Shown piece by piece: positions 816-57,219 of a DNA stretch of 64,000 nucleotides. The notes below the pieces were generated by a model that was not told where the DNA came from, ran no database searches, and saw nothing but the letters and a program-made list of their open reading frames with translations. The position numbers and the translations under genes are program-made. The DNA is from an uncultured bacterium (GTDB lineage: Bacteria; Bacillota_I; Bacilli_A; RFN20; CAG-826): NCBI GenBank assembly GCA_949296775.1, contig CASFQA010000003.1, positions 47,935 to 111,934 of the forward strand. Reading direction: 5' to 3'. Within the stretch, counting starts at the first letter, position 1. Every line of letters starts with the position of its first letter.

Positions 816-928
816 TTTAAACCTGCAATTTGTTTTTCAAAATAACGACGTTTTTGCCTATATTTTTCGCCTAAGTGCCATTTTTGCGCCCTTTTTGCTA
901 TAGTAAAAACACTTTAAGGAGGATCACG

Positions 929-1435
929 ATGACTATGCAATTAAGAGCGATTGAACTAGATGACCTTAAGCAACTTCAAATCATGCTAAAGGATTTTTGG
1001 TCAACTCAGTTGGTGGAGGCTTCGAAAGCCGATATCCTCGAGGATATACGTCGGATGCTGAGCCCGAAATGCTATTCCTATATCATCGATGTCGACGGGG
1101 AGGCGGCCGGCTTTATTCATGTGAATGAGAAATACGGTTACGTCAACAACATCGAATATCTTTATATTAAGCCCGAATATCGAGGGCAAGGCCTCGGCTC
1201 ATTTGCCCTTAACGAAATAAAGAAGATACTTTTCGCCGATGGTTTGGAACGCGTCCAAATTGAGGCTAATCCATCAAATCTAAAGGCCTTAAAGCTTTAT
1301 CATCGACTTGGCTTCGACAACATCGATACCTTGACATTATCGACCGAGATCATCGGCAAGACCGAAGTCAAAACCGTCTTTGGCCTCGATTTTAAAATCA
1401 ACGAGATAAATTTGTTCGCCCACAAAAAGAAGTGA
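929..1435 (+). CDS. GNAT family N-acetyltransferase
   Basis: GNAT motif A (RGQGLGSFALNEI...KALKLYHRLGF). AAGGAGG RBS at 916-922, 6 nt before the ATG at 929. The ORF-track start at 875 lacks an RBS. Confidence 0.85.
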   Translation: MTMQLRAIELDDLKQLQIMLKDFWSTQLVEASKADILEDIRRMLSPKCYSYIIDVDGEAAGFIHVNEKYGYVNNIEYLYIKPEYRGQGLGSFALNEIKKILFADGLERVQIEANPSNLKALKLYHRLGFDNIDTLTLSTEIIGKTEVKTVFGLDFKINEINLFAHKKK

Positions 1436-1458: not shown

Positions 1459-1833
1459 CTAGGCCAAGGATGGGAGCAAAAAGAAGGAACACATCTTCTC
1501 GATTTTCGCCTTGTCCGCCAAGCCGAATTCAAAGCAACGGGCCTTGATCTCGATTCCATCGAGCAGATCGGTGTAATAAATCCCGATTGGCTTTTCGCCG
1601 GCGATTTCCTTGATATATGGGAGGAGCTGAGTGAATGATGTCTTTTCCGACGGGTAATCAAGTTTGATGGCCATTTTGTATCCGAACAACCCCTTTTTAA
1701 CTTCGTCATAGCTCGGGTGGGCTTTTTGGCCATTCACGCCGCCAAGGTGGGCGGAGGAAACGCCAGGCAGGGTTTGGAAACGCGCCGTTTCCTCCTCAAT
1801 CCGATCGAAACTGATGTAGATGGTCTTCTTCAT
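1459..1833 (-). CDS. MsrA-like (peptide methionine sulfoxide reductase A fold) protein lacking the catalytic Cys motif
   Basis: Aligns to the MsrA core (xxLPGV...GG...P(S/T)Y(D/E)EV...G..(E/K)A(V/I)...DP...S(Y/F)..LL...YRSAIY-like IGIYY). The GCFWC/G active-site motif is replaced by ISFDR. 124 aa, shorter than canonical MsrA. Confidence 0.55.
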   Translation of the reverse strand: MKKTIYISFDRIEEETARFQTLPGVSSAHLGGVNGQKAHPSYDEVKKGLFGYKMAIKLDYPSEKTSFTQLLPYIKEIAGEKPIGIYYTDLLDGIEIKARCFEFGLADKAKIEKMCSFFLLPSLA

Positions 1834-1894
1834 AACGGGCGTTATTATAAGGCAACCTTTATTTATTCTTGCTAAAAAAGGATAATTCGCTCAT

Positions 1895-4291
1895 ATGAAG
1901 AAAAGCAAAGTCGATGATTTGGGGTTAACGATCGAAGAAGAGTTGCCCCTTCTTTACGGTGATGGAAACTGGAATTTCCATGGAGTGCCCTCGTTGGAAT
2001 TGCCGGGGGTCAGCATGCGCGATGGGCCGTTGGGATTAAGAATGTCCGATGTCTCGACCGCCTTAGATTCCAATGTGACCCTTCCCTCGACCTGTTACCC
2101 CTCGCCTTCTTTGTTGGCTTGTTCCTTCGATCCTTCGTTGATGGAGGAAGTCGGGTCATCAATGGGACGGGATTGCCGGCAAAATAAGGTGAATGTCCTT
2201 TTGGCTCCCGCCATCAACATCAAACGCAATCCTCTGTGCGGACGGAATTTCGAATATTACTCGGAAGACCCATATTTGACTGGCAAGCTGGCCAGCGGCT
2301 TCATCAAGGGCCTGCAAAAAGAAGGGGTCGGGGCTTGCCTTAAGCATTTCGCCTGCAACTCGCAGGAAAACGGAAGGATGGTCAATGATTCCATCGTCGA
2401 CGAACGGGCGCTGCATGAGCTTTACCTTAAAGGCTTTGAGATCGCCATCACCGAGGGTCGGCCTTGGACGTTGATGACGAGTTACAACAAAATCAACGGG
2501 ACTTACGTTTCCGATTCCGATTATCTGCTAAAGGATCTGCTTCGGAACGAATGGCATTATAACGGAGTCGTCATGTCGGATTGGGGCGGGACCGCCCATT
2601 TCGTTCGTTCCCATAATTATGGCTTGGATGTCGAGATGCCTTGCTTAATCGACCGAAGCAAGGATCTGCTTCGCGCCATTCGGGCGGGGAAACTCGACCG
2701 CCATGCGGTCAAAACCACCGCCGAGCGGATCATCGCTTTATCAAAACGAGTCAAAATCCAAAGCGATAAACCCTTTGATTATTCCGAGGATAAGGCGGCG
2801 GAAGTGGCTTTGCAAGCCGCGCTTAATTCCCTTGTCTTGCTTCAAAATGATGGCGTCCTTCCCCTAAAAAATGGGCTTGCTGACGCCGCGATCATCGGCT
2901 CGCTGGCCAAGCGGCTGCGGATTACCGGCGGCGGCTCTTCCTGCGTGAGCCCCCTTCACGAGGCCAGCTTCCTTGATTGCTTGAAAGACGATGAGCAGAA
3001 GAACTACGCCCCTGGGTACTCCTTTAATCCTAAAGACGACCAAGAGGCTTTGCGGATCGAGGCGGCTGATTTAGCGGCTAAGAAGCAAACGGTCATCTTG
3101 TTTTTGGGGTTAAGTGACCATAATGAATCGGAAGGGTTCGACCGGGAGACTTTATGTCTTCCCGAAGAGCAGCTTCGCCTTTTCGATTCCCTATACTCGG
3201 TCAATCAAAACATCATCGTCGTCTTAAACGTCGGTGCCCCGGTCGAACTGCCTTTCGCCGATAAATGCCGGGCGATATTGCTTTGCTATTTGCCGGGCCA
3301 AGAAGGGGGCGAGGCCATCCGGCGGATCATCGAGGGCGAGGCTTCCCCCTCGGGCAAACTGGCCGAGACCTGGCCGATTCATCTTTCCGATGTTCCCTCT
3401 TTCGGGTTTTACCCAGGGACGGAAGTCCAATCGATTTACCGGGAATCGATCTATGTCGGCTACCGTTATTATCTTTCCTGCGAGAAGAAGACCCGTTTCC
3501 CCTTTGGGCACGGCTTAAGCTATGGCAAATTCAAATACGGCAAGTTGACTCTTTCTGATAGAACCATCGAAGAGGGGAAGGAAGTCAAGGCCAGCATCGA
3601 GGTCACCAACTCCTCCGACGTCGCTTCCGCCTTGACGGTCATGCTTTTCCTTGAGCCGACCGAAGGCAATGTCTTTAAGGCCAAGCGGACCCTCATCGGG
3701 TTCCAAAAACAAACATTCGGCCCAAAAGAGACCAAAATTTACGAGTTCTCCATCCCATATATGGCTTTATCCCATTACGATATCGGCACCTCCGCTTTCT
3801 TAGTCGAAGGGGGTAAATACCAAATCGAGGCTTGCTCTGATGCTGAAACCGTCGAGTCAAAGGCCTGCCTAAAAGCCATCTCGCCTGATCAATTCGCTTC
3901 CAAGATGATGTCGATGCCGATTTATTATAACGTCCCCAAAGGCGGTTTCCTCCAATACGACAACGATTTCGAGGATTTGCTCGGTCACCATGTCTCCATT
4001 GCCAAGGACCCCCGGAGCCGCCCCTATACTTTGGATTCGACTTTCGGCGATATCTCCTCGACTTGGATTGGGAAGATATTGATGAAGAAGGCTCGAGCCA
4101 GTTTCCCCGTCGATGAGAATAACGGCTTCTCGATAATGGTTAGCCGTTCGATCGCCGCCACGCCGATAAGGAACATCGTGATGAACGGATATAGCCAAAA
4201 ATTCGCTTTGGCGGTGGTCGATTTCGCCAACGGGCATATGCTAAAAGGCTTATTTCATTTGCTGTTCGGGGTTCAGCGACGTGATCTTTGA
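1895..4291 (+). CDS. Glycoside hydrolase family 3 (beta-glucosidase/BglX-like) with C-terminal extension
   Basis: GH3 N-terminal domain motifs KHFACNSQE and VMSDWGG (catalytic Asp). GH3 C-domain and FnIII-like region (FGHGLSYGKF). Confidence 0.85.
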   Translation: MKKSKVDDLGLTIEEELPLLYGDGNWNFHGVPSLELPGVSMRDGPLGLRMSDVSTALDSNVTLPSTCYPSPSLLACSFDPSLMEEVGSSMGRDCRQNKVNVLLAPAINIKRNPLCGRNFEYYSEDPYLTGKLASGFIKGLQKEGVGACLKHFACNSQENGRMVNDSIVDERALHELYLKGFEIAITEGRPWTLMTSYNKINGTYVSDSDYLLKDLLRNEWHYNGVVMSDWGGTAHFVRSHNYGLDVEMPCLIDRSKDLLRAIRAGKLDRHAVKTTAERIIALSKRVKIQSDKPFDYSEDKAAEVALQAALNSLVLLQNDGVLPLKNGLADAAIIGSLAKRLRITGGGSSCVSPLHEASFLDCLKDDEQKNYAPGYSFNPKDDQEALRIEAADLAAKKQTVILFLGLSDHNESEGFDRETLCLPEEQLRLFDSLYSVNQNIIVVLNVGAPVELPFADKCRAILLCYLPGQEGGEAIRRIIEGEASPSGKLAETWPIHLSDVPSFGFYPGTEVQSIYRESIYVGYRYYLSCEKKTRFPFGHGLSYGKFKYGKLTLSDRTIEEGKEVKASIEVTNSSDVASALTVMLFLEPTEGNVFKAKRTLIGFQKQTFGPKETKIYEFSIPYMALSHYDIGTSAFLVEGGKYQIEACSDAETVESKACLKAISPDQFASKMMSMPIYYNVPKGGFLQYDNDFEDLLGHHVSIAKDPRSRPYTLDSTFGDISSTWIGKILMKKARASFPVDENNGFSIMVSRSIAATPIRNIVMNGYSQKFALAVVDFANGHMLKGLFHLLFGVQRRDL

Positions 4292-5207
4292 TTTTCTTTT
4301 CGGAAAGGCCCTTCAGAAGGTTTTTGGGAAGCGGGGCGATGGCTTAGCCAGTTTCCGTTATCCGCCGATCAGCTCTTTCGGGGTGAAGACCGAGCCTTTT
4401 TCCTTTCTTAGCGAAGGCACCCTCATCAATGGCGAGGTCGCCTATCCAAACGCCGATCCGCGAGGCTTAGTCGTCTTCTTTCATGGGTTGGGGGCCGGTT
4501 ATACCGCCTATTCCCAGGAAATCGCCTATTATGCCCGTAATGGCTATTTGGTTTATGCCTTCGACTACCACGGCTGCATGACTTCATTGGGGCGGGATAT
4601 GGTTGATCTTGGTCATCCCCTGCTTGACCAAAAGGCCTTTTTCGCCTATTTAGACGCCCAAGAAGCGGCGAAAGGGTTGGCCCGTTATTCGATCGGCCAT
4701 TCTTGGGGCGGGTATCTTTCTTCGGCCGCCTTGGCCTTTCCGGAGTACCGGATCGAGAAAGCCATATCATTCGCCGGCTTCCTCGATATTGCCTCGATCA
4801 TCTTATATAGCGCCCCGACCCTTAAGAAAATGAAAGGGCGGATCAGCGCTTATTTTTCCAGCCGCTACGGAGCGGTGGCGGGCTCTTCGATCATCGAGGT
4901 GGCGAGGGCAAGCGGGAAGCCGTTGCTCTATATCCAAGGAGACGAGGATACGATGGTGCCCTTTTCCGATAGTTTGCTCGCCCTCCGGGAAGCGGGGCTG
5001 CCCAACGTTGAGACGGTGGTGGCAAATAGGCGGGGCCATCAACCGTATTGGAAAATAGAAAGCTATCGTTATTTCAAGCAGATCAACGAGCAATACAAGC
5101 CCGGTTCCTACGACCGTGACCCTAATTTCTTCATTGATTATGCTCGACTTCAGCAAGACGACCCGATAATTATGAAAAGGACAATCGACTTTTTGAAACT
5201 AGGGTAG
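4281..5207 (+). CDS. Alpha/beta-hydrolase (esterase/dienelactone-hydrolase-like)
   Basis: VVFFHGLGAGY oxyanion region and GHSWGG nucleophile elbow. Overlaps the GH3 stop by 11 nt, suggesting translational coupling. Confidence 0.7.
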   Translation: MIFDFLFGKALQKVFGKRGDGLASFRYPPISSFGVKTEPFSFLSEGTLINGEVAYPNADPRGLVVFFHGLGAGYTAYSQEIAYYARNGYLVYAFDYHGCMTSLGRDMVDLGHPLLDQKAFFAYLDAQEAAKGLARYSIGHSWGGYLSSAALAFPEYRIEKAISFAGFLDIASIILYSAPTLKKMKGRISAYFSSRYGAVAGSSIIEVARASGKPLLYIQGDEDTMVPFSDSLLALREAGLPNVETVVANRRGHQPYWKIESYRYFKQINEQYKPGSYDRDPNFFIDYARLQQDDPIIMKRTIDFLKLG

Positions 5208-8028: not shown

Positions 8029-8104
8029 CTTATTATTTTAGACTTTTTTCTCTTGGATAAAAACCTAATGAGAGATATATAGAAATAGGAATAATCAAAC
8101 AGTC

Positions 8105-8229: not shown

Positions 8230-9666
8230 ATGTTTCTTAAAGATATCTACCCGTTCTTCAAGATAGAGGATAAAACTATTGAGTGTAAGCTTCGTCTTAA
8301 CGACGATTCGTTTTCTTGGCTTAAAACCGTCGCCGGCTTTGCCAATAGCGGAGGCGGGGTCTTATTTGTCGGGGTCAAGCCAGATGATTTCTCTCTCGCG
8401 GGCATGGACTTGTCTACCGCGGATAAGCAAAAGCAGCTTTTTTATCAAAATGTTAAAAACCGCATTCAGGCTGATTTGCATATTTCAACCGATCTTTTGT
8501 CATATGCCGATTCCGGGCATGATCTTTATGTTTTAAAAATCAACGTTGAGGAATCGGACAAGAAGCCGGTTATCCTCATGCATCAGGGTTTTCCGATGGT
8601 TTTCGTCCGAAATGACGGATTCACTTCTCCCGCGACCCAGGAAGAGTTGGTTTTCATGTCGACCCGTCATGAGCAAACTCATTTTGATGAGATGACAACC
8701 GACATTCCCTTCTCTATTGATGACTTTCACGATTTAGATGCTTTTAGGTTTTCTCGGACCAATCAGCATTTGAACGCGAAGGAGTTGGAATCCTTGCCGT
8801 TTTTCGATAAGGATGGGAAGCTTTATCGTGGCTCATCTCTGTTTTCGGATTCCTGCGATGAAGCCAATACTAAGATTGTTTGCTCGGTTTACCCCGGTTT
8901 CACCAGGGGAAGCGATTTGGTCATTGCCAGCAATTCCTTTGTTGGCAACCTAGTGCAAGGGTACGAGTTCATGAACGAGTTTGTTCGCACGAGGATGAAC
9001 CGCGGCTTTTTGAAAACCGGGGATGGCCGGATCGACGTCGATGCCTATCCGGAACGGGCTCTATTCGAGGCGATCATCAACTCTTTGGCCCATCGCGATT
9101 ATTTCATTCCCGGATCGCAGATTTCTTTGGACATGTTCAAAGATCGGCTTGTCATTACTTCTCCTGGCTCTTACTATCAAAGCGGCCCTTTAAAGCCGAC
9201 TTATGATTTAGCGGGTTTCGCTTCCCGACGACGAAATGAATATATTTGCCGTATTTTCTGTTATTGCAAGGCGATGGAAGCCAAAGGGACTGGGTTTGAG
9301 CGGATTGTAAGTGACTACGCTTCCGCCGATGAACGCCATAAGCCTTTCATTTATTCTAAGAACTCTTTATTTTCCATCGTTCTCCCGGATTTGACTTATG
9401 CCGCCGGGGTCAGCATTGAAACGGACTCGATTTCCGTTCTGTCGGAAAATTTGCTGACCTCTAAGTATGATTTGGAGATACTTTCCTATTGCTATGGGGC
9501 GAATCGGGACGTAAAGGATATCGCTAAGCATATCGGCCTCACCAATTCATCCTATCTTCGGAATGTCATTATTGGGAATTTGATCAAAATAGGCTATTTA
9601 GATTCTATAAAAATCGGCAACGCCCAATTCTTCTCATCCAATAAAGAAAAAGTAACTTTGAAATAG
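8230..9666 (+). CDS. AlbA_2 (Schlafen-like, 'divergent AAA/putative DNA-binding') domain protein with C-terminal HATPase_c_4-like region. Often annotated RecG-like transcriptional regulator.
   Basis: The N-terminus (IECKLRLNDDSFSWLKTVAGFANSGGGVLFVGV) matches the AlbA_2/PF04326 signature. The gene is about 40% GC against a surrounding level of about 50%. It is flanked by the 42-bp direct repeats. Confidence 0.6.
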   Translation: MFLKDIYPFFKIEDKTIECKLRLNDDSFSWLKTVAGFANSGGGVLFVGVKPDDFSLAGMDLSTADKQKQLFYQNVKNRIQADLHISTDLLSYADSGHDLYVLKINVEESDKKPVILMHQGFPMVFVRNDGFTSPATQEELVFMSTRHEQTHFDEMTTDIPFSIDDFHDLDAFRFSRTNQHLNAKELESLPFFDKDGKLYRGSSLFSDSCDEANTKIVCSVYPGFTRGSDLVIASNSFVGNLVQGYEFMNEFVRTRMNRGFLKTGDGRIDVDAYPERALFEAIINSLAHRDYFIPGSQISLDMFKDRLVITSPGSYYQSGPLKPTYDLAGFASRRRNEYICRIFCYCKAMEAKGTGFERIVSDYASADERHKPFIYSKNSLFSIVLPDLTYAAGVSIETDSISVLSENLLTSKYDLEILSYCYGANRDVKDIAKHIGLTNSSYLRNVIIGNLIKIGYLDSIKIGNAQFFSSNKEKVTLK

Positions 9667-10590: not shown

Positions 10591-13164
10591 TCATTCGGCT
10601 TGGTAACCGGCCGCTTCAATCGCGGCGACGAGCTTGGCTTTGTCGAGGTTTTCGCCTTTTACGACGGCTTGCTGGTTATCTAAGCTGACTTCGGCCGAAT
10701 CGACGCCGGCTTCCTTTTCCAAGGCCTCCTTGACGTGGGCGACGCAATGCATGCACATCATGCCGCTCACCTTGAGGGTTATCTCCATTTCCTTCACCTC
10801 CTTTCGTTTATCAATGCTTATCGGACAAGCGGTAGGGTACAAATCCTCGCTTAGCTGGATATGGTTTCGTTTTCTTGCGCCTTTATCTAAGGACAATAGA
10901 TTTAGCCGAAGGGCGTTCAAGACGACGGTGAGCGAGCTTAACGACATGGCGGCCGCCCCCATCCATGGCCGCATCTTGGCCATGCCGACGCTGGAGAATA
11001 CCCCGGCCGCAATCGGGATCATGATGAGGTTGTAAATGAAGGCCCAAAAAAGGTTTTCCTTGATATTGAGCAAGGTTTTCCTGGATAGCCTGATCGCTTT
11101 AACCGCATCGGATAGCTTGGATGAGGCGATGACGACGTCGGCGGAATCGATGGCGATATCCGAGCCGGAGCCGATGGCGATGCCGATATCGGCTTCGGTA
11201 AGGCTTGGGGCGTCGTTAATCCCGTCCCCGACCATAATGACTTTCCCTTTCTTCTTGAGCTCTCGGATGGCTGCTAGTTTGCCGCCCGGCAATAAGGAAG
11301 CGACTACCTGATCGATCCCCACTTCAATGGCGACCGAACGGGCCACCGTGGCATTGTCCCCGGTGAGCATGACCGGGATGATCCCCATTTCCTTGAGGGC
11401 GGCGATGGCGGATTTGCTGTCTTCTTTTATCTCATCCGCCGCTCCGATAGCCCCGAGGTATTCCCCTTGCTTAGCGAAGAGCAATGGGGTCGCGCCCAAT
11501 AGGGAGATTTCCTGGTAATCGGCTTCGGCCAAAGGGGTATCGGCCTTGATTTCTTTTAGCAATTCCAAATTGCCGCCATAATAGGTGATGCCGTTTATTT
11601 CGGCTTGGACCCCGCGACCAGGAATTGTTTGGAAGCGGGTGACTTCTTTTTCGATTAGATTACGATTTGCGGCCTCTTTTTTAATAGCCTTGGCCAAAGG
11701 ATGCTCGGATGCGGATTCGACCGCAAAAGCCAAGGATAAAAACTCGTTTTCATTAGTTTTGCACCGGATTTGGGTTACCCTTGGTTCCCCTTTGGTGATG
11801 GTCCCGGTCTTGTCGAGGACGACGATTTCCGCCTTTCCGGTCTCCTCTAAAGCCGTCGCGGTTTTGAATAAGATACCCTGCTTGGCCCCCCGACCGGAGC
11901 CGACCATTATCCCGACTGGGGTGGCGAGCCCTAAGGCGCAGGGACAGGATATGACTAAGACCGCGATCCCCTTCTCCAAAGCGTAAGTGAACAGGGATTC
12001 GGATTCGAAGTTCGCGTTGACGAAGTCTTTCCCGAATAATAGCCAGAAGACGAAGACGACGAGGGCGATCAGGATGACGGCGGGGACGAAGATCCCGGAC
12101 ACCTTATCGGCGATGCGGGCGATGGGGGCTTTGGAGGAAGACGCTTCCTCGACCATCTTGACGATTTGGCTTAAGGTCGTTTCCTCGCCGGTCCGCGTGG
12201 CCTTAATGGTCAAGGCTCCGGTTTGGTTGATGGTCGCGGTGTTGACCTCGTCGCCTTCTTTCTTATCCACCGGCATCGATTCCCCGGTAAGGGAGGACTC
12301 GTCAACCGAGGAGGAGCCTAGGAGGACGATTCCGTCGGCCGGGAAGGATTCGCCGGGGTAGATGAGCAGCTCATCCCCGGCTTTGATTTCTTCAATTCCC
12401 ACGTCTTTGATTTGGCCGTCCTTTTTCAGATGGGCGGTTTTGGGCGAGAGGGAAAGCAAGGCCGAGAGGGCGCTGGTGGTTTTGCCTTTGGAATAACTCT
12501 CCAACGTCTTCCCGACGGTGATCAAGGCGACGACGGTGCCGGCGGTCTCGAAGTTGAAGTTCATCGATATTTCCATGATCGCGCGGTAGGTCGAAGGGTC
12601 TTGGTACCCGGTTGCGGAGACGTAATAAGCCATCTCCAGCAATAGGGCGAAGCTATATAGGAAAGCGACCCCCGATCCCAGACTGACCAAGGTATCCATA
12701 TTGGGCGAACGGTGGAGCAAGGCCTTGAAGCCGGAGACGAAATAATGACGGTTTATGACCATGATGGCCAGGCTTAGGGCCATTTCGATTAGGCCTAATA
12801 GGAGGGGGTAATCAACTAAGGCCCCGATGTTCCAGCCTAACATCGCCCCCATCGCCAGGTAGAAAAGCGGAACGAGGAGGATTAGCGAGGCGATGAGGCG
12901 GAATAGCAATGGCTTGGTGAGGCTATTTTTATCCGTCTTGGCCTCGGCTTTCTTTTCTTTGGCGAGGGCCGCCCCGTACCCGGCTTTCTCGACCGCCTCG
13001 ATTATCGATTCGATTGAAGATGGCGCATCGAACTCGACGGCCATCGCATTGGTCAGCAGGTTGACTTCGACTTGGCGGACCCCCTCTAGCTTGGCGACCG
13101 CTTTCTCCACCCGGGACGAGCAGGCGGCGCAGGACATCCCGGTTATATTGAAACGTTCCTTCAT
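10591..13164 (-). CDS. copA: Copper-translocating P1B-type ATPase CopA with N-terminal and C-terminal HMA domains
   Basis: N-terminal HMA GMSCAACSSRVEKA, CPC motif (SCPCALGLATP), DKTGTIT, GDGINDAP and a C-terminal HMA GMMCMHCVAHVKEAL. Confidence 0.9.
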   Translation of the reverse strand: MKERFNITGMSCAACSSRVEKAVAKLEGVRQVEVNLLTNAMAVEFDAPSSIESIIEAVEKAGYGAALAKEKKAEAKTDKNSLTKPLLFRLIASLILLVPLFYLAMGAMLGWNIGALVDYPLLLGLIEMALSLAIMVINRHYFVSGFKALLHRSPNMDTLVSLGSGVAFLYSFALLLEMAYYVSATGYQDPSTYRAIMEISMNFNFETAGTVVALITVGKTLESYSKGKTTSALSALLSLSPKTAHLKKDGQIKDVGIEEIKAGDELLIYPGESFPADGIVLLGSSSVDESSLTGESMPVDKKEGDEVNTATINQTGALTIKATRTGEETTLSQIVKMVEEASSSKAPIARIADKVSGIFVPAVILIALVVFVFWLLFGKDFVNANFESESLFTYALEKGIAVLVISCPCALGLATPVGIMVGSGRGAKQGILFKTATALEETGKAEIVVLDKTGTITKGEPRVTQIRCKTNENEFLSLAFAVESASEHPLAKAIKKEAANRNLIEKEVTRFQTIPGRGVQAEINGITYYGGNLELLKEIKADTPLAEADYQEISLLGATPLLFAKQGEYLGAIGAADEIKEDSKSAIAALKEMGIIPVMLTGDNATVARSVAIEVGIDQVVASLLPGGKLAAIRELKKKGKVIMVGDGINDAPSLTEADIGIAIGSGSDIAIDSADVVIASSKLSDAVKAIRLSRKTLLNIKENLFWAFIYNLIMIPIAAGVFSSVGMAKMRPWMGAAAMSLSSLTVVLNALRLNLLSLDKGARKRNHIQLSEDLYPTACPISIDKRKEVKEMEITLKVSGMMCMHCVAHVKEALEKEAGVDSAEVSLDNQQAVVKGENLDKAKLVAAIEAAGYQAE

Positions 13165-13455
13165 TTATTTTAGTCTCCGCAGCAAAGCGAAGGATTCGAG
13201 CAAAGCCGAATCATCCCCGCCCATGAGCTTATCCTTGACGCAGGTTAGCATATGGGTTTTGTAAACCCTGGTGGCGATTTCCCTAATCGCCCCCTCGACC
13301 GCCGAAATCTGGCAGAGGATATCGCCGCAATAACGATCCTCCTCCAGCATATTCTTGATCCCTTCCATTTGGCCGACGACCCGTGAGCAGCGTTTTATTA
13401 GGTCCGCTTTTTCCTTTTCATCGCGGGGTTTGTCTTTCTTCTTGCAGCATTCCAT
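13165..13455 (-). CDS. csoR: CsoR/RcnR-family copper-sensing transcriptional repressor
   Basis: 96 aa with RCSRVVGQMEGIKNMLEEDRYCGDILCQISAVEGAI...HMLTCV, matching the CsoR Cys-His-Cys metal-site pattern. Directly abuts copA. Confidence 0.85.
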   Translation of the reverse strand: MECCKKKDKPRDEKEKADLIKRCSRVVGQMEGIKNMLEEDRYCGDILCQISAVEGAIREIATRVYKTHMLTCVKDKLMGGDDSALLESFALLRRLK

Positions 13456-13466
13456 AGGGTCAATAT

Positions 13467-13483
13467 ATACCCCCGGGGGGTAT
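13467..13483. promoter_or_regulatory. Putative CsoR operator (GC-rich inverted repeat ATACCCCC-GGGGGGTAT)
   Basis: Matches the CsoR operator architecture TACCC-N-GGGTA known from Bacillus. It lies 12 nt upstream of csoR and overlaps the -35 position of the divergent plus-strand promoter. Confidence 0.6.
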
Positions 13484-13501
13484 GTGTCAAAGATTGTGCT
13501 T

Positions 13502-13510
13502 TGCTATAAT
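13502..13510 (+). promoter_or_regulatory. Extended -10 promoter element TGcTATAAT for the Ntn-hydrolase gene
   Basis: TGnTATAAT at 13502-13510, followed by a GGCGGAGG RBS and the ATG at 13529. Confidence 0.5.
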
Positions 13511-13528
13511 AAAGGCGGAGGAAAACAT

Positions 13529-14434
13529 ATGTGCACTGCCTTAACCCTTTCCTATCCCGCCTTCCTATTTGGCCGCAACCTCGATTTAGTCGGCAATTTC
13601 GGGGAAAGGGCGCTTTATCTTTCCCCTCACGCCCCCTTGCTTTTCTCTTCTGGCGAAACGATTTCCGACCATCCGGCTTTGCTGGGCATTGGGGCAAGAG
13701 GCGGGGATTTCCCTTTATTCGCTGAGGCGATTTCTTCTTCCGGACTGGCCATGGCCGGACTCAATTACCCCGGGCTCGCGTCTTTTGATCCCTCTGGGCA
13801 AGTCGCCCAGTACGAGTTCATCGCCTTCGTCTTAACCCATTTCTCCTCCGCCAAGGAAGCCGCCGAGGCAATCGGCGGGATGCGGCTTAGCCAGAAGGGG
13901 TTCGCCCCCAATATGCCGCCCGCCCCTTTGCATTATCTTTTGTCCGACGAGAGCGATAGCTTCGTCATCGAGCAGGAGAAAGACGGGATGCACGTTTATC
14001 ATAACCCTTACGGCGTCTTGACCAATTCCCCTGGGTTTCCGGCCCAATCGGAAAACTATTCCCGTTATGGGGAGTTGACCAACCGTTTTGTTGCCGGGAC
14101 TTACCCTGGGCTTGGCTATGGGGCCATCGGATTGCCTGGCGATAACTCGCCGTTTTCCCGCTTTGTCCGGATGGCCTTTTTCAAAGAGCACCTGCCGGAA
14201 TTCGCTACTCCTGAGGCTGAGATCGTCGCTTTTTTCCATTTGCTCTCCAATGCCCGGGTTATCGAGGGATCGACTTTCGATGAGAAGGGACAAAGCGAGG
14301 AGACGATCTATTCCTCTTGCTATGACGTCGTTAATATGAGGCTGCTAGTCCAGACCTCTTCTTCCCTCAACGTCAAGGAAATTGCCTTCGATATGAAAAA
14401 GGAAGGCTTTTTCGACCTTCCTTTAGGTGATTAA
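13529..14434 (+). CDS. Choloylglycine hydrolase / linear-amide C-N hydrolase family (Ntn hydrolase; bile-salt hydrolase or penicillin V acylase-like)
   Basis: Met-Cys2 N-terminus (MCTALTL), the hallmark of an N-terminal nucleophile. GGCGGAGG RBS 7 nt upstream. The ORF-track start at 13355 lies upstream of the promoter and RBS. Confidence 0.75.
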   Translation: MCTALTLSYPAFLFGRNLDLVGNFGERALYLSPHAPLLFSSGETISDHPALLGIGARGGDFPLFAEAISSSGLAMAGLNYPGLASFDPSGQVAQYEFIAFVLTHFSSAKEAAEAIGGMRLSQKGFAPNMPPAPLHYLLSDESDSFVIEQEKDGMHVYHNPYGVLTNSPGFPAQSENYSRYGELTNRFVAGTYPGLGYGAIGLPGDNSPFSRFVRMAFFKEHLPEFATPEAEIVAFFHLLSNARVIEGSTFDEKGQSEETIYSSCYDVVNMRLLVQTSSSLNVKEIAFDMKKEGFFDLPLGD

Positions 14435-18432: not shown

Positions 18433-18538
18433 AGTTCCCGCATTCTAGAACCATTGGCCTGACTTTGAAAGTGCTAATTTGCCTTAAAGGCATTTCCCTC
18501 TTTAAAGCGAGGTTCATAGCCGTTAATATTCACGCCAT

Positions 18539-19105
18539 ATGGATTGGCCGTTGGTTATCATCACTTCCTGCAATATGGCGATCGACGCGTCGGTCACCAA
18601 TGCCTGCAACGCGGTGAGGGCCGGGCTTCGGAAATGGGGGTTATTGCTCTTCTCGGCCTTCTTGTTCGGGCTCTTCCAAGCGGCCATGCCGACGATCGGT
18701 TATTTCGTGGGCTATGCCTTTAAGGATATTCTCGAGACCTACATCCCTTATATCGCCTTTGCCCTTTTGGCTTTGCTTTCAATCAAGAGTTTCGTTGATT
18801 TCGTTAAGGAATTGCGGGCTAAAGAGGAGGAAAACGCTTCGGAATTGCGATTAAGGGAAATCCTTTTCCAGGCAGTGGCGACCTCGATCGACGCCCTTTG
18901 CATCGGCTTTACCTTCCTTTCCTATTCGATTGCTGAGGCGATGGTTGTCTTTGTTTGCATCGGAGGCGTCACCTTCGCCCTTTCTTTTGTTTGCGCTTTG
19001 CTCGGCAGCTTCCTTTCCAAGCCTTTAAAGCGTTATGCCGGGCTGATTTCTTCCCTGGTTTTCTTGGGGATCGGCTTGAAGATTCTGCTTGAAGCCCTTT
19101 TGTAG
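18539..19105 (+). CDS. mntP: Manganese efflux pump MntP family (DUF204)
   Basis: The two-repeat pattern NMAIDASVTNA / VATSIDALCIGF matches MntP (MSMDAFAASI / TAIATSLDAMAVG). 188 aa. Confidence 0.7.
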   Translation: MDWPLVIITSCNMAIDASVTNACNAVRAGLRKWGLLLFSAFLFGLFQAAMPTIGYFVGYAFKDILETYIPYIAFALLALLSIKSFVDFVKELRAKEEENASELRLREILFQAVATSIDALCIGFTFLSYSIAEAMVVFVCIGGVTFALSFVCALLGSFLSKPLKRYAGLISSLVFLGIGLKILLEALL

Positions 19106-23232: not shown

Positions 23233-25218
23233 ATGAGGAAAAAATCTACGTTGCTAGCTCTCTCGGTATCGGCGTTGCTGCTTTTGGGAAGCTGCGATCC
23301 CGCGCGTACGTCAAGTAGCGAGGAAAGTCCGGTCGATACCACTTCGAAGACGACCCCCGTAACGGATACCACCTCGGATACCGATTCGGAAACCACGCCG
23401 ACCATTACCGTCGACATCACCACCACGGTCACCGAGGTCGAGACCGAGGGAACTTTGGAGTTGACCGCCACCGTAACCGGAGCGGAAGGCGCCAAAGCGA
23501 CTTGGGCCATCAAAACCAAAACTCCGGCGGAGATGGATGCCAGCATCGGCGCCGAAACCGGCGTTTTGAATGCCGGCACTGTAGCCGGAACTTTAGTCGT
23601 TACCGCAACTTATGGGGGCGTTAGCGATGAAATCACCATTACCGTTAAAGAAGCGCCGAAAGTAACGACGGTTAAGATTCTTGGCGCGCCGAGCGAAACC
23701 GTGTATACCGGGACTAACCTCAAGTTAGACGCCTATGTCACTAACGGGCCTGATGGTTATCGCGTTAACTGGACCTGCACGACCGATCCAGCGGATATGG
23801 GCGCGTCGGTCGATGCGAATGGCAACGTCTCAACCGGTACTAAGCCTGGTAAGATCACGGTTACCGCGAGAGTAGGCGAAGCGAGCGATTCGGTTGTCAT
23901 TACCGTAGTCGAGGCGCCGGTCGTCTCCGTCGATATCACGACCACCGACACGCAGGTGGCGATCGGCGGCACCCTTCAATTAGCCGCCTCCATCACCAAT
24001 GGAGAGGATGGGGCCAAACCGACCTGGGCCATCACTAGCAAAGCCCCGGAGACGATGGATGCGACCATCGACCCAGCTACTGGATTGTTAACTGCTGGCA
24101 AAGTTCCGGGCAAGTTGACCGTCACCGCCGCTTACGAAGATGCGGTCGACTCTATTGAGATCACTATTCCGGACCCGGCTTTCGCTACCGATGTTTTCCC
24201 AGCCTCGTATAAGATGACGATCGGCGATTCCTATTTCGAACTCGTTCAAGGAAAAGGCATAATTCTGTCGGGCGCATCCAACGTATATGGTTATATTTTG
24301 GTCGATGAGGTGCTCTACACTGCTGCATACGACGAAAAGCAAGGTTACGTCTATCGTCTTGATCAACCTCTATCGCCCGGTGTTATGACGGTTGATGAGG
24401 CTTTTGCAACCTTCGACCTAAATGCCGATGCTGCGAAATACACCTATGCCTCAACCGATGCGGCAACTGGTAATCACACTTATATCATCGACATAGACGG
24501 CACTCGCGCCCAAGATCTCATTAAGATTTTTGGGATATTTCCGGAGACCGCTAAGGCCGTCGTTAATCCTGATGGTGATCTCGTCTCCTTTACCTTCGTC
24601 GAGGAGGGCAAGGATATAGCCGCCACTATCACCGCGGTCGATGATTTGAGTGAGGAATACAAAGCCTATGTTGGAATCACTATCACTGGCGCCCCGAGTA
24701 AAGCCCCGACTAACGACGAGATCCCACTCGATTTGAATCTGGTCGGCGTCGATGAAGCGGATATTACTTGGTCGATCGTCAAGAACCCAACCACTATGGA
24801 TGCCACCATCGATCAGGACGGCATTCTCCATACCGGGTCGGTTGCCGGGACGGTTACCGTTCGGGCGGCGGCTGGCGATTATTATCATGAGGTCACCATC
24901 GAAATCCAGGTTGTCACTGTCGATATCGGCGGCGTTCCGACCGAACCGGTTTTGACCGGGCAAACGGTCGAGCTAGTTGCTAATATCACCAATACCGACG
25001 AGACGCCGGTCTGGTCGATAACAATGGTGGCCAAAGAGGATGGCAAGACGATGGATGCCACCCTCGATCAAGATGGCATCCTCCATACTGGCACCGTTGG
25101 CGGGACCATTACCGTCACCCTCAGCGTCGCTGGTTACTCTGACGAGGTCGATATCGTAGTTAAGCAACAGCTTAGCGATGGTGGAGCGACCGACGAAGGC
25201 GTGACCGAAGATTGGTAA
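23233..25218 (+). CDS. Surface lipoprotein with about six tandem Big_2 (bacterial Ig-like) domains
   Basis: LLLLGSC lipobox and a Thr/Asp-rich stalk. Repeated units of the form TWAIKTKTPAEMDASI...GTLVVTATYGGVSDEITITV. Confidence 0.75.
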   Translation: MRKKSTLLALSVSALLLLGSCDPARTSSSEESPVDTTSKTTPVTDTTSDTDSETTPTITVDITTTVTEVETEGTLELTATVTGAEGAKATWAIKTKTPAEMDASIGAETGVLNAGTVAGTLVVTATYGGVSDEITITVKEAPKVTTVKILGAPSETVYTGTNLKLDAYVTNGPDGYRVNWTCTTDPADMGASVDANGNVSTGTKPGKITVTARVGEASDSVVITVVEAPVVSVDITTTDTQVAIGGTLQLAASITNGEDGAKPTWAITSKAPETMDATIDPATGLLTAGKVPGKLTVTAAYEDAVDSIEITIPDPAFATDVFPASYKMTIGDSYFELVQGKGIILSGASNVYGYILVDEVLYTAAYDEKQGYVYRLDQPLSPGVMTVDEAFATFDLNADAAKYTYASTDAATGNHTYIIDIDGTRAQDLIKIFGIFPETAKAVVNPDGDLVSFTFVEEGKDIAATITAVDDLSEEYKAYVGITITGAPSKAPTNDEIPLDLNLVGVDEADITWSIVKNPTTMDATIDQDGILHTGSVAGTVTVRAAAGDYYHEVTIEIQVVTVDIGGVPTEPVLTGQTVELVANITNTDETPVWSITMVAKEDGKTMDATLDQDGILHTGTVGGTITVTLSVAGYSDEVDIVVKQQLSDGGATDEGVTEDW

Positions 25219-25229
25219 GGAGAGCAAAT

Positions 25230-28200
25230 ATGAAAAAGAACAAATTGCTTATTCTCTCCGCCTCCTGCGCCCTTGGGCTTAGCCTTGTGGGCGCCGGGGT
25301 GGGAATCGCCCTCTCCGAGAAGGCAAACGCCGATACCCCGTCTAGCACGGTGTTCGACGATGTCCTTGGCGAAGACGCCATTGGCCAAAAGGTCAAACTC
25401 GGAGTCGGGGCAGAGACTTCTGACGTTACTCCGGAAATCGAAACCAATATCGGCGTCTTGGCGGTTGATGGCGAGATCGCTGGCACTAAAGACGTCCGGG
25501 TTTATTTCCGGCTCAATTCCATCAATGGAATTCAAACTGCTTCATTGACCCGCTCTGTCAAGACTGCGGCAGGGGAGGTCGTCAAGGAAGCGAGCACCCT
25601 TGACGTCGATTACGTTTATTCCTCCATCAATGGAGCGGAAGAGGCGACCTGGCTTGATATGGCCGCCGAGGAGCCGGCCGTTATCGCAACCGACGAGCTT
25701 CCCGCCGCCCCGTATTACCTCGTCTACACTTTGAAAAACATCCCGGCTGACCATTGGTTTGATCATGTGAACGTGGTCGCCAAGCTTAATGGAACCGAAG
25801 CTTCGCCAACTCAGGAATTTACCTATAATGTCTATGGGGCGATCGGCGATATTGCGGCTGGGGTTATTTTCGCTCCACGTCCTGATGTTGAGGGCGAATA
25901 TTACGTCAAGAGCTCCGGAGCCGCCGAGGCTGTCGTTCCAGAGAATTACTGCGAATACCATGGGGCGATTGCCACTTTGCTTGGCAAAGTGACATGTGTT
26001 GGCGATCCGACCTCAACTTCTGGCGGGTTTGAATATAAATCCTCATTAACTAGTCTGACTTTGCCCGATACCATTGACACATTCAACAAATGGTCTTTTA
26101 GTGGCGTAAGTTCTTTGAAATCTCTTACCCTTCCGCGAGATTTGACTACTGTTTTGCAGAGCTCGTTTAATAACATGGACTCGCTAGAAACCATTGAATA
26201 TAAAGCTCTCAATCTTACAACGGTTGATGACACTTTCGACAATGAGGGCTTGACCGTTAATGTTTCGGGTGCTGTAGAATCGTTGCCAGACGAATTGATT
26301 ACTGGCGAGGCGGAACTGGTCAATTATGAAGGAACGACGGCCGAATGGGAGGCCTTGAAGACCGATACCAACCAAAACAATGGGCTCTTCATCGACAACG
26401 TCATTTGTTCCGACACCGTCACCCATACCGTCACATTCCATCTTGGCGAAGGAACGATCGGCGATTTGACTGGCGATGTTGATTACACCGTCATCGAAGG
26501 CAAGCTGGCTGCTGACCCGGGCGATGCTTTGCTGCTGGGCATGGCGTTCAAGGGCTGGTATATGGATCAAGCCGGCGAAACTCCGTGGAATCCTGAAACT
26601 CCGGTTACCGGGGATTTGGATATCTATGCCGTGTATGAGGAGTTCGGACCGGGCGCATCGGCGAGCAATCCGATTACCCTAATCACTGGCGAAACCTATA
26701 CCGAGAACCTCGTTCCGGGCTATGAAAAAGTCTATCTGACTTACACTCATCCAGCGGATGCGGAAGCTGATTGGCGTTACCTTTACGTCGATGAGTCGGC
26801 CTGCGAGGAAAGTGAGGTTTCCACGGTTACCGCCAGTAACCTCGACGTGGCTATTGATGTCTACAAAGGGTCATTCGAAGGGGAAAAGGAAGAACTTGGC
26901 TCTAATGACTATGTTTTTGACAGCGCCGTTAAACCGATTGGCACTGACGGAGACATACGTTTCTTGGCTGAGCCGGGGCAGACTTATTGCTTCGTAATCG
27001 ATCCTTATTCAAATGATTACTATCAAGACCGAGTTTATTACGGCAGTCTTGCAATGAAATTCCTTGATTTCGAAGAGGATTCAATTGAAGCGGCTGGTCA
27101 GCTTGTCTACGGCGAAACTTCGACCGTTCGCCGCGACGACTATACTAGCTCAGTTATGACGCCTGCCACGGTCAAGGCCTATACCCCGACGGAAACTAAG
27201 GCGGTTGCCCTTAATATCGGCCGCACGAATTACACTTGGGCTGATGTTGAAGTTTACGATATCACCGATCCTGCAAACCCATCCTCTTTAGGGTCTGATT
27301 CGGATACCAGCGATTCGACGATGATTTTGAATCTTGAGGCCAACCATCGTTATATCTTGGTTGTCGACTTGAACGGGGCGACCAGTGATACCGACTATGT
27401 GACTTTGACAATTGGCGAGATTCCGGCGGGCGCCGATATCTCCAACCCGATCGCCATGACTATTGGTACGCCGGTGACCGTTAATTCCATTAATAGCGAA
27501 TACAGTTACTATTCTCTTACCTTGGATGAAGCGGCGGATTTGGCTTTCACCCTTAATGAAGGTTCATCTTCCTACGCCAAATACTTCAAGGTATACGATA
27601 GCACTGGCGAGCAAGTGGCAACCGCCACCGAAACCGGTGTGCAAAGTGGATGGGGTTGGGACACCACTACCACTTATGGCGGTGAGCTGCTTGAGCGTCT
27701 GCACCTGGAGGCTGGATCCTACGTTGTTGAAGTCGGCTATACCAGCAGCCTCTATAGTTACACCGGCTTTACCTTCCAAGTCGATTATGTCCAAGACGGC
27801 GAATACATCGGGCGTCCTGGCATTGCAAATCTCATTGAGGGCACTAACAACCTTAGGTCGACAAAAGATGGTTACTATTATAGTTATTCTCCGTCTGCTG
27901 ATATGGATGGAAAGTATCTTGTGATAGAGCTGCCCGATCTAGAAGGACTGGTCATTGACGTTGTCGATGCTGATGATGAAGTCATTAAGACAGTTTCAGC
28001 AGGCGGTCAAGTCGGCGTCAAATTAACTCAAGGCACAAACGTGATCTTTGTGCTTCGTGGCATTGATAACAATACGGTTTCTGTAAATGCCCAATTCGTC
28101 GATACCTATCAAGATGGACTCACCGAGGATACTGCCTATACTTTGGATAACGCTGGAATATTTGCTTCTTCTGACGGCGGCGACGGTTTTATATTTACTT

Positions 28201-29159: not shown

Positions 29160-29176
29160 TTTGTTCACCATCATCT

Positions 29177-29204
29177 GGGAAGGCGACTTGCCTTCCCTTT
29201 TTTT
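29177..29204 (+). terminator. Rho-independent terminator
   Basis: GGGAAGGC/GCCTTCCC stem with loop GACTT, followed by T7. Confidence 0.7.
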
Positions 29205-29307
29205 GTCATTAGATGCTTATTCTCAGGCAAAAAAGGCTTGCTTTTTTTCGTAACGCTATTATGTTTTCCGAGGCTCAACAGTAAATGCGCGAGAACAAGG
29301 AGTACCA

Positions 29308-30765: not shown

Positions 30766-30779
30766 GAAAGGATTTGATT

Positions 30780-31574: not shown

Positions 31575-31606
31575 TCAAATAAATTTCTAAGGAAAGGGTT
31601 AAATAC

Positions 31607-57180: not shown

Positions 57181-57219
57181 CTTCTTGCCTTTTCGCCTTA
57201 ATTATCTAATTATAACCCC

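Follow-up and report, generated by a model that had tools for sequence, protein, structure and literature searches.

The gene considered here raises the question of what becomes of a repair enzyme once the residues that carry out its chemistry have gone. Few repair enzymes are conserved as uniformly as MsrA, and in the 64-kb stretch of DNA that was analysed (64,000 nucleotides, hereafter the window) the original prediction had picked out an open reading frame that aligned to the MsrA core without its catalytic cysteine motif. The frame runs on the minus strand from an ATG at 1833 to a stop codon at 1459-1461, and its product is 124 aa long.

1459..1833, minus strand: coding sequence, with stop codon, for the Cys-less MsrA-fold protein of 124 aa (ORF list, Pfam, AF2, Foldseek, orthologs)

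This protein is homologous to MsrA at a level that chance could not produce. It passed the gathering score of Pfam PF01625 (30.9 bits against 23.7, E 3.7e-7), with coverage limited to residues 17-73, and phmmer against the PDB aligned residues 3-79 with Neisseria MsrA 3bqf (E 1.6e-5). A profile built from the Cys-less family matched the MsrAs of the PDB at E 1e-19. The AF2 model was confident (pLDDT 92.7, pTM 0.85), and in a Foldseek search of the PDB its best 43 matches were all MsrA, over the whole length and with TMq of 0.83-0.85. The motifs on which the predicted alignment to the MsrA core had been based were all found, with LPGV at residues 22-25, GGVNGQKAHPSYDEV, YPSEKTSFTQLL, and IGIYY at the position of YRSAIY. 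The equivalog model TIGR00401 gave 26.1 bits against a cut-off of 108.1, a score so far under the cut-off that the protein is to be regarded as an MsrA homolog and not an equivalog.

Residues of MsrA are numbered here as in the E. coli / N. meningitidis enzymes (Cys51, Glu94 and so on), whose mutagenesis has established the roles of the catalytic residues. The sulfoxide is bound by Glu94, Tyr82 and Tyr134, and Phe52 and Trp53 make up the methyl pocket. Three segments of the 124-aa protein correspond to parts of this active site.

1795..1812, minus strand: residues 8-13, SFDRIE, in register with A-G-G-C-F-W of the GCFWG motif (alignments, site table)
1672..1683, minus strand: residues 51-54, GYKM, where MsrA has GHAE, the equivalent of catalytic Glu94 being Met54 (alignment, site table)
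1588..1596, minus strand: junction at residues 80-82, E-K-P; intact MsrA has here about 12 further residues of the active-site loop (..QG.D.G.QY, with Asp129 and Tyr134), which the 124-aa protein has lost by deletion (profile-to-3bqf alignment)

The predicted replacement of GCFWC/G by ISFDR was confirmed by an in-register alignment (YLAGGCFWGL / YISFDRIEEE), in which Arg11 (codon 1801-1803) takes the position of the nucleophilic Cys, Ile12 that of Phe52 and Glu13 that of Trp53; together with the Pfam score this bears out both the fold and the absent Cys. The loop is a 12-residue gap in the profile-to-3bqf alignment. The C-terminus reads ...CSFFLLPSLA; the AE.YHQ.Y lid and the recycling-Cys tail are missing, and with them Glu183, His186, Tyr189 and the recycling Cys of GGYCH. 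A site table was compiled for Cys51, Phe52, Trp53, Tyr82, Glu94, Asp129, Tyr134, Glu183, His186, Tyr189 and Cys198 in 25 Cys-less sequences and 22 intact relatives. All 22 intact relatives had Cys51, Trp53, Glu94, Asp129, Tyr134 and Cys198, whereas Cys51, Trp53 and Glu94 occurred in none of the 25 Cys-less sequences and Asp129, Tyr134 and Cys198 each in at most one. Every catalytic position of the 124-aa protein was substituted or deleted except Tyr82, which is kept as Tyr42 and is Pro in the sister 124-aa subgroup.

The loss of the cysteine motif is therefore real but is only part of a far wider loss. Canonical MsrA, solved examples of which are 3bqe-3bqh (the Neisseria PilB MsrA domain), 1ff3 (E. 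coli) and 1fvg (bovine), has in common with the 124-aa protein the alpha/beta core (TM 0.83-0.85) and the G-x-x-N-G...P-x-Y-x-x-V and Y-Y-x-D segments; the 124-aa protein, however, is about 40 residues shorter and has neither the Cys nucleophile nor Phe52/Trp53, Glu94, the loop with Asp129 and Tyr134, the recycling Cys or the AE.YHQ.Y lid. Because of these losses, the protein is predicted to have no methionine sulfoxide (Met-S-sulfoxide) reductase activity. A frameshift hiding a Cys motif, which the original prediction had named as grounds for giving up its reading, was looked for and ruled out, as neither alternative frame of the N-terminal region contained a GCFWG-like motif and tblastn with intact MsrA returned one HSP, in a single frame, at the 124-aa gene. 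Selenocysteine at the active site was likewise ruled out, there being no in-frame TGA in the ORF.

The neighbourhood of the gene indicates where it came from.

1895..4291, plus strand: glycoside hydrolase family 3 (GH3) gene, 798 aa, divergent neighbour (Pfam, synteny)
4281..5207, plus strand: alpha/beta-hydrolase gene, 308 aa, second in the conserved GH3 operon (Pfam, synteny)
929..1435, plus strand: convergent GNAT acetyltransferase (Pfam; 168-aa calls in L001-L004)

Cys-less genes of five subgroups (124, 129, 132, 137 and 160 aa) are transcribed divergently from a pair made up of GH3 (~800 aa) and abhydrolase (~308 aa) genes, and GH3 lies next to Cys-less and intact msrA forms alike (loci L001-L004, L012-L014, L016 and L018-L023). 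This linkage was kept in every lineage sampled, at GH3 identities of only 45-52%. The neighbours on the far side vary by subgroup (GNAT, MS channel, an uncharacterised 660-aa protein, DegV, ROK, acyltransferase_3); GNAT adjoins the msrA-like gene only in the closest, 77%-identity group. The GNAT gene itself likely starts at 929, giving 168 aa as in relatives, and the mechanical ORF begins at 875.

The same slot, divergent from GH3-abhydrolase, is occupied in sister lineages by the intact GGCFWG MsrAs P0035 and P0045. Intact MsrAs of these lineages (P0035, P0045, P0005 and others) are PRK05528-like proteins of 163-165 aa with the pattern GGCFWG ... YYTDLLDG ... NFFPAE.YHQDYL ... GGYCHVNL, and they resemble the 124-aa protein in their slot, in the N-terminus MKKTIY, in YY.DLLDG(I/V)E and in a -10 box near the ATG. 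They are 34-42% identical to it, but they keep all catalytic residues and have evolved slowly (P0035 and P0045 are 74% identical, with GH3 at 47%). The 124-aa gene is the positional ortholog of intact msrA in sister lineages, not a duplicate, and the term paralog used in the original prediction does not hold. A second msrA was sought by tblastn with intact MsrAs in the window and in loci L001-L011, and within those stretches, which are what the search covered, only the 124-aa gene itself was found. No msrB was found by tblastn in the window and L001-L011 with an E. coli MsrB query.

The Cys-less proteins form one clade (NJ bootstrap 100) nested within the intact YY.DLLDG subfamily, and this clade has a single origin. 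Judged on sequence, it is a conserved pseudoenzyme clade within the MsrA family. Its hosts are RFN20-type gut Bacilli, uncultured, small-genome bacteria of gut and rumen that are relatives of Ca. Alloenteromonas; the RFN20/CAG-826 host has a genome of about 1.2 Mb (PMC8035907). Long-branch attraction among fast-evolving sequences could inflate the monophyly of the Cys-less sequences in such a tree.

Whether the gene is maintained or decaying was left undecided by the original prediction, which proposed a comparison of dN/dS with orthologs to distinguish the two. Nine aligned orthologs, 46-98% identical, were 123-124 aa long with one 1-residue gap and 32 invariant columns, and a genome-contig search using the alignment of the 124-aa group recovered the gene in four species-level genomes. 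For L001 against L005, L008 and L009, dN was about 0.065 and dS about 1.0, with omega of 0.05-0.08. In the Nei-Gojobori count for L001 against L008, 45.5 of 80.5 synonymous sites had changed vs 19.5 of 291.5 nonsynonymous sites (Fisher p 2e-21), and the adjoining GH3 gene of the same genome pair had an omega of 0.068 at dS 0.92. The 124-aa gene is under purifying selection as strong as that on neighbouring GH3, and its protein therefore does something useful. The Cys-less clade as a whole has spread to about 30% identity with start, core and motifs kept. Pairs of Cys-less proteins are 31-37% identical at about 47% GH3 identity, similar to the abhydrolase, whereas intact MsrAs at the same GH3 identity share 74% of their residues. 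Of the two states that had been put forward, the conserved pseudoenzyme stands and the decaying gene is refuted by the selection analysis.

The residues that have been conserved may point to a part of the molecule other than the former active site.

1480..1497, minus strand: residues 113-118, KMCSFF, carrying the K-x-C-x-F-F motif peculiar to the clade; Cys115 (codon 1489-1491) is in the hairpin turn between beta5 and beta6 (alignment counts, AF2 secondary structure)
1549..1578, minus strand: residues 86-95, YYTDLLDGIE, in which strand beta4 ends and helix alpha3 has its N-cap (alignments, AF2 secondary structure)

All 25 aligned Cys-less sequences have Cys at position 115. Of the 22 intact relatives 3 do so, and intact enzymes otherwise show a polar residue there that differs from one to another (R, N, S, K, D, E, G). 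Given the three intact relatives with Cys there, Cys115 could have been inherited without consequence, or could serve in packing after C-terminal trimming. The YYTDLLDGIE segment is common to the Cys-less proteins and the intact subfamily from which they arose, and Tyr87, Asp89, Leu91 and Asp92 vary little or not at all within the Cys-less clade. Among the polar residues of the clade, conservation is highest at Cys115, Lys113 (96%), Asp89 (100%) and Asp92 (96%). A thiol or binding site may be present around Cys115, and the strand order of the ferredoxin-like core would place Tyr87-Asp89-Asp92 and Lys113-Cys115-Phe117 in one patch, at the opposite pole to the old active site. The original prediction had not remarked on the newly fixed Cys115. 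In the distant member P0010, Thr stands in place of the new Cys.

The region upstream of the gene was conserved as well.

1844..1849, minus strand: perfect TATAAT -10 box, a candidate promoter element; the 10 nt that separate it from the ATG contain no Shine-Dalgarno (sequence, conservation)
1834..1894, no strand assigned: 61-bp intergenic region between the divergent 124-aa and GH3 genes (sequence)

The box that had been predicted about 10 nt from the ATG was thus located, with 10 nt between. TATAAT or TATACT was found 6-10 nt from a likewise conserved ATG start in 11 related loci, among them L001, L005, L008-L012, L016 and the intact orthologs L018 and L020, and this spacing fits a leaderless or short-leader transcript. 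A consensus promoter scan found no recognisable -35 upstream of the box at 1844-1849, and because of this the scan made no minus-strand promoter call. The GH3 gene has its own box, GATAAT, 8 nt upstream of its ATG. A similar layout is seen at other first-in-operon genes of the window, and AGGAG at internal ones. From the arrangement of these elements, the 124-aa gene is probably expressed from a leaderless or near-leaderless mRNA.

Taken in order, these observations suggest the following history. In the common ancestor of this clade of Bacilli, which belongs to the order RFN20, the resident short-type MsrA would have been stripped of everything needed to reduce methionine-S-sulfoxide, namely the Cys nucleophile, the methyl pocket formed by Phe and Trp, the Glu and Tyr side chains holding the oxygen of the sulfoxide, and the 12-residue loop. 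The AE.YHQ.Y segment at the C-terminus would have gone later, as would the recycling Cys, and the alpha/beta core of the fold was retained. In the same clade the new Cys115 of K-x-C-x-F-F would have become fixed in the beta5-beta6 turn. The present gene would be read from a leaderless mRNA beginning a few bases past the conserved TATAAT, in the 61-bp bidirectional region shared with the GH3/abhydrolase operon, and the pseudoenzyme would be a small stand-alone module, thiol-dependent or binding a ligand or partner, whose putative working surface is Tyr87-Asp89-Asp92 / Lys113-Cys115-Phe117. We consider it probable, though well short of certain, that the lineage's own msrA was converted in place to a non-reductase pseudoenzyme, most likely a thiol-dependent or ligand/partner-binding module at the Cys115 patch.

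It is possible, with a distinctly lower probability, that the pseudoenzyme is instead a scaffold or regulator without thiol chemistry, for example one tied to the GH3/abhydrolase operon, in which Cys115 is merely structural. The GH3-abhydrolase linkage in all lineages sampled, even at 45-52% GH3 identity and with the other flank varying, is consistent with such a role, as are the conserved columns, which are mostly core or shared residues, and P0010, which does without the Cys. Intact MsrAs, however, show the linkage as well, which makes it older than the erasure of the active site and no evidence for a new GH3-related role. No conserved partner gene besides this ancestrally linked operon was found among the loci compared, so that the gene neighbourhood gives no specific hint of the new function. 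Presence of Cys115 in 25/25 sequences, at a position that is polar and variable in intact enzymes, would also be unusual for a mere packing residue, and no DNA-binding or other recognisable interaction domain is present in the 124-aa protein.

Returning to the Cys115 module, a bolder version of it is that the MsrA scaffold, after the old site was erased, gained an opposite-pole centre in which a reactive Cys115 is flanked by Lys113 and Asp89/Asp92, making a hitherto unrecognised family of thiol enzymes or sulfur/ligand carriers on the MsrA fold in place of an inert relic; this we regard as speculative and unlikely. A shade less likely still is the particular form in which the old scaffold carries a new enzyme with a site of Cys115, Lys113 and Asp89 or Asp92 (a Cys-Lys-Asp arrangement as in the triads of amidases and thiol hydrolases), or acts as a sulfur-relay/persulfide carrier. 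These four residues are the most conserved polar residues of the clade; Lys113 and Cys115 stand i/i+2 at a strand end in the AF2 secondary structure, so that their side chains would point the same way; and topological reasoning sets the end of beta4, with Asp89, beside the end of beta5, with Cys115. Intact relatives, however, conserve Asp89 and Asp92 too, and these two residues may only cap helix alpha3; in so small a protein a substrate pocket and the geometry of the residues are putative.

A protein that is still a methionine (or other) sulfoxide reductase, its nucleophile having migrated from the GCFWG position to Cys115, is very improbable. One new invariant Cys appears in exactly the clade that has no Cys51, and the MsrA fold is retained, but Phe52, Trp53, Glu94, Tyr134 and Asp129 are gone, Tyr82 is gone in part of the 124-aa group, and the active-site loop and C-terminal lid are deleted. 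By chain tracing, Cys115 is six residues before the former Glu183, at the other end of beta6, and so lies far from the old pocket; a second conserved Cys for recycling is also absent. Least credible of all is a decaying msrA pseudogene whose frame merely remains open, for although its catalytic motifs are gone, its length has shortened to 124 from about 164 aa, it has evolved faster than intact MsrA relative to GH3, and its host is an anaerobe with a reduced genome in which Met-SO repair may be dispensable, this is opposed by an omega of 0.05-0.08 at dS of about 1, as in neighbouring GH3, by an open frame of 123-124 aa in 9/9 aligned sequences and its presence in four species-level genomes, by a clade that still keeps start, core and motifs at about 30% identity, by the confident AF2 model and by the conserved promoter box.

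One MsrA-fold protein with a role other than Met-SO repair is that of Haloferax volcanii, in which MsrA-dependent ubiquitin-like (SAMP) conjugation requires the nucleophilic Cys13 and Glu56 (PMC5587910). The equivalents of both residues are absent from the 124-aa protein, and archaeal MsrA sampylation was rejected as a model because it needs this active-site Cys and Glu. A literature search found no description of conserved Cys-less MsrA homologs.

Conversion of the resident msrA would make this a clean natural case of an enzyme gene turned in place into something else, and were Cys115 a working site, it would provide a second, unrelated function for the MsrA fold. In public annotation the Cys-less proteins are called 'peptide-methionine (S)-S-oxide reductase' (e.g., MBO8426348.1, MDY6429650.1 and MCR5491920.1). 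These MsrA names are probably wrong, and so, probably, are metabolic and oxidative-stress inferences for RFN20-type gut Bacilli that rest on them.

As intact and converted versions occupy the same slot in sister lineages, the transition should be easy to study. The GGCFYG variants P0055 and P0057 (165-166 aa) branch as sister to the Cys-less clade with a bootstrap of 80. They belong to the same subfamily and, like the Cys-less clade, show changes at active-site positions (Trp53 to Tyr, Tyr82 to His, Asp129 to Tyr and the recycling Cys to Asn); unlike it, they keep Cys51, Glu94, Tyr134 and an AE.KHQ.Y lid, and have Glu at the Cys115 position. These variants may represent an intermediate or altered-specificity state.

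The following features make up the MsrA-like gene and its divergent neighbourhood.

1459-1833, minus strand: MsrA-like ORF, 124 aa (ATG at 1833, stop at 1459-1461; N-terminus MKKTIYISFDRIEEETARFQTLPGV)
1844-1849, minus strand: TATAAT, 10 nt from the MsrA-like ATG
1895-4291: glycoside hydrolase family 3 (GH3) glycosidase, divergent from the MsrA-like gene
4281-5207: alpha/beta hydrolase, after GH3

In the Pfam search, the 124-aa protein exceeded the PF01625 (PMSR) gathering score of 23.7 with 30.9 bits (E 3.7e-7), matching across residues 17-73 only. Against TIGR00401, the NCBIfam MsrA equivalog model, it scored 26.1 bits versus a cut-off of 108.1. A phmmer search of PDB sequences aligned residues 3-79 with the MsrA domain of Neisseria PilB (3bqf, E 1.6e-5), and a profile of its relatives that lack the nucleophilic Cys of GCFWG (hereafter Cys-less) matched PDB MsrAs at E 1e-19. 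These data uphold the original prediction of an MsrA-fold protein without the GCFWG motif. In the 3bqf alignment, TIYLAGGCFWGLEAYFQ lies opposite TIYISFDRIEEETARFQ, which places Arg11 where the nucleophilic Cys would be, and the pairing of GHAE with GYKM replaces the catalytic Glu with Met54. A 12-residue loop ('..lnkqgndtgtqy', bearing Asp129 and Tyr134) is cleanly deleted in the alignment of the Cys-less profile to PDB MsrAs. Neither of the remaining frames across the N-terminal region held a GCFWG-like sequence, and tblastn with an intact relative as the query gave a single HSP in a single frame; a frameshift-corrected reading therefore cannot restore the motif.

The family is small. A word-indexed search recovered three full-length orthologs, each exactly 124 aa long (98, 77 and 73% identity), and HMMER, run exhaustively over 1.84 billion representatives, returned only 19 proteins at E <= 1e-3, about 10 of which are short (123-161 aa) MsrA-like proteins likewise without GCFWG. 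A profile search enlarged the set to 53 proteins, comprising Cys-less forms and intact MsrAs of 163-166 aa. In the 90%-identity cluster around P0054 (Ca. Alloenteromonas group), three proteins (P0070, P0072 and P0073) are 108 aa rather than 124 aa, which may reflect alternative start calls or truncated variants missing about 16 residues.

An alignment of 49 sequences (A4) was the input for both a site table and an AlphaFold2 model. The site table splits sharply into two states at residues whose catalytic roles we take to be those assigned by mutagenesis of E. coli and N. meningitidis MsrA. Cys51, Phe52, Trp53, Tyr82, Glu94, Asp129, Tyr134, His186, Tyr189 and the GGYCH recycling Cys are present in 22/22 intact sequences, and Glu183 in 21/22 (Asp in the remaining one). 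Among the 25 Cys-less sequences, Cys51, Trp53 and Glu94 occur in none, and Asp129, Tyr134 and the recycling Cys in at most one each. Basal Cys-less members of 140-160 aa still keep NFFPAE..HQHY, and the C-terminal lid is wholly gone from the 124-aa group, including the window protein. The reductase machinery has been completely lost from this protein, which would be expected to have no Met-SO reductase activity. Judged by its residues, the group contradicts the name peptide-methionine (S)-S-oxide reductase that Cys-less proteins carry in public records.

The MsrA fold is nevertheless retained. The AlphaFold2 model (mean pLDDT 92.7, pTM 0.85) has the order beta1-alpha1-beta2-(short helix)-beta3-alpha2-beta4-alpha3-beta5-beta6, and its best 43 PDB matches in Foldseek are all MsrA structures, with query-normalised TM-scores up to 0.85.

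The gene is also under strong purifying selection. Across 46-98% identity, the alignment of the 124-aa group contains one 1-residue gap and 32 invariant columns. Between related locus L001 and loci L005, L008 and L009, dN was 0.06-0.07 and dS 1.0-1.2 (omega 0.05-0.08); the GH3 neighbour gave dN 0.063, dS 0.92 and omega 0.068 for L001 versus L008. Nei-Gojobori counts for the latter pair of MsrA-like genes were 45.5 changes at 80.5 synonymous sites and 19.5 at 291.5 nonsynonymous sites (Fisher p 2e-21). Comparisons with the window sequence itself were saturated at dS, with pN 0.14-0.16 versus pS of about 0.8. The original prediction had offered a conserved pseudoenzyme or a decaying gene; the first stands, and the pseudogene reading is rejected by the omega values, the substitution counts and the conserved length.

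The divergent arrangement with GH3 recurs in the 124-aa groups of 77% and 52% identity, in the 160-aa, 137-aa and 129-aa groups, and, with an acyltransferase inserted, in the 132-aa group. Two intact GGCFWG MsrAs of sister uncultured Bacilli (P0035 and P0045) occupy the same position, and the genes on the opposite flank vary among all lineages compared. The Cys-less genes therefore descend in place from the resident msrA and are its positional orthologs, not paralogs as first supposed. By tblastn, no second msrA or msrB was found in the 64-kb window or loci L001-L011. In a neighbour-joining tree (200 bootstraps), all Cys-less sequences form one clade (support 100), to which long-branch attraction is a possible contributor, nested inside the intact YY.DLLDG subfamily. 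Its sister (support 80) consists of two GGCFYG variants in which Trp53, Tyr82, Asp129 and the recycling Cys are already lost. These variants, P0055 and P0057 (locus L024:150-647; 165-166 aa), keep Cys51, Glu94 and Tyr134, carry Trp53->Tyr, Tyr82->His and Asp129->Tyr, lack the recycling Cys, and may mark an intermediate stage or a change in specificity. The two intact MsrAs are 74% identical where GH3 is at about 47% identity; Cys-less pairs at that GH3 distance are 31-37% identical, about equal to the alpha/beta hydrolase. These relative rates support a shift in constraint.

Within L009 (7543-10375), GH3 is near-identical to that of L001 (dS 0.09) and distant from L008 (dS 0.96), and the MsrA-like gene is close to L008 (dS 0.12) and distant from L001 (dS 1.0). 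On sequence comparison, these close relatives form a recombination mosaic, and the opposite affinities place a breakpoint at or close to the 61-bp intergenic region between the two divergent genes. In the window, on the other side of the MsrA-like gene, a convergent GNAT acetyltransferase gene (875-1435, plus strand; mechanical ORF from GTG 875, 186 aa; the 168 aa of relatives corresponds to ATG at 929) ends 23 bp from the MsrA-like stop, with no terminator-like hairpin between the two stops.

Comparison of conservation between groups identified a Cys two residues ahead of the conserved F-F as the outstanding clade-specific feature (K113-M-C115-S-F-F in the window protein). This position is Cys in 25/25 Cys-less sequences and in 3/22 intact relatives, the other 19 being variable and mostly polar (R, N, S, K, D, E, G, T, L). 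The representative scan supplied three more Cys-less sequences, two with Cys here and one, P0010, with Thr. The Cys is newly fixed in the Cys-less clade, and Lys113 is conserved in 96% of that group versus 50% of intact relatives. Cys115 sits at the beta5-beta6 turn of the model. In MsrA, beta4 opens with Tyr134, and the AE.YHQ lid comes after beta6, at the end that holds the active site; by this topology, Tyr87-Thr88-Asp89 (closing beta4) and Lys113-Cys115 (beta5-beta6 turn) would lie on neighbouring parallel strands at the opposite pole. The protein probably acts as a small thiol-dependent or binding module through a Cys115/Lys113/Asp89-Asp92 patch.

Rival readings were a pseudoenzyme whose role is purely structural or regulatory, a new enzyme with a Cys-Lys-Asp site, and a reductase whose nucleophile migrated. 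The moonlighting activity of an archaeal MsrA depends on the active-site Cys and Glu (PMC5587910), both absent here, and so offers no model for the window protein. A full-text literature search, with most subscription journals outside its coverage, found no description of Cys-less MsrA homologs. As a pseudoenzyme, or possibly a neo-enzyme, the window gene is a clean and well-supported example.

The predicted TATAAT was confirmed at 10 nt from the ATG, and the intervening bases contain no Shine-Dalgarno sequence. TATAAT or TATACT lies 6-10 nt from the ATG in 11/11 related loci with the divergent arrangement, including two intact orthologs. This conservation makes a leaderless transcript plausible, and the protein would then be translated from leaderless mRNA. 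The promoter, having no recognisable -35, was missed by a consensus scan. For GH3 the hexamer is GATAAT, 8 nt ahead of the ATG, and several other first-in-operon genes of the window are alike, with -10-like hexamers (GATAAT, TAAAAT, TAGAAT, TAATAT) about 6-16 nt from start codons and no Shine-Dalgarno; genes inside operons have AGGAG at -9 to -14. This RFN20-type lineage may commonly use leaderless or near-leaderless mRNAs.

1881-1897, 8029-8045, 13165-13180, 18433-18450, 18520-18541, 57205-57222, 61160-61172: regions with -10-like hexamers near start codons

Upstream of the -10 box, the divergent intergenic region contains an A-rich element (1850-1875; AATAAATAAAGG), with equivalents in Cys-less and intact orthologs (AAAATAAAGACC in L010 and L012; CAAATAAAACC in L018). 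It may act in the bidirectional promoter as a shared operator or UP-like element, or may be just an AT-rich spacer.

Of 185,579 species-level genomes scanned, four carry the 124-aa form; they are MAGs of uncultured Bacilli and Candidatus Alloenteromonas pullistercoris. Alloenteromonas, first named Ca. Enteromonas (GTDB UBA733), was assigned to order RFN20, family CAG-826, with a genome of ~1.2 Mb reported for one species (PMC8035907). The window also encodes ABC exporters, large repeat-containing probable surface proteins and the following genes.

8230-9666, plus strand: Schlafen/AlbA_2 and HATPase_c_4 protein
10591-13164, minus strand: copper P-type ATPase with two HMA domains
13355-14434, plus strand: choloylglycine (bile salt) hydrolase family protein
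23233-34252, plus strand, and 34828-39283, minus strand: run of large ORFs (661, 1315, 485, 280, 881, 753 and 698 aa)

This content, bile salt hydrolase included, fits a gut commensal. The copper ATPase and Schlafen-like genes are syntenic in L001-L003 too. The large ORFs, the majority without a Pfam match, are probably surface proteins; BspA-type LRR and Listeria-Bacteroides repeats occur in the 1315-aa ORF, and a Big_2 domain in the 753-aa ORF.
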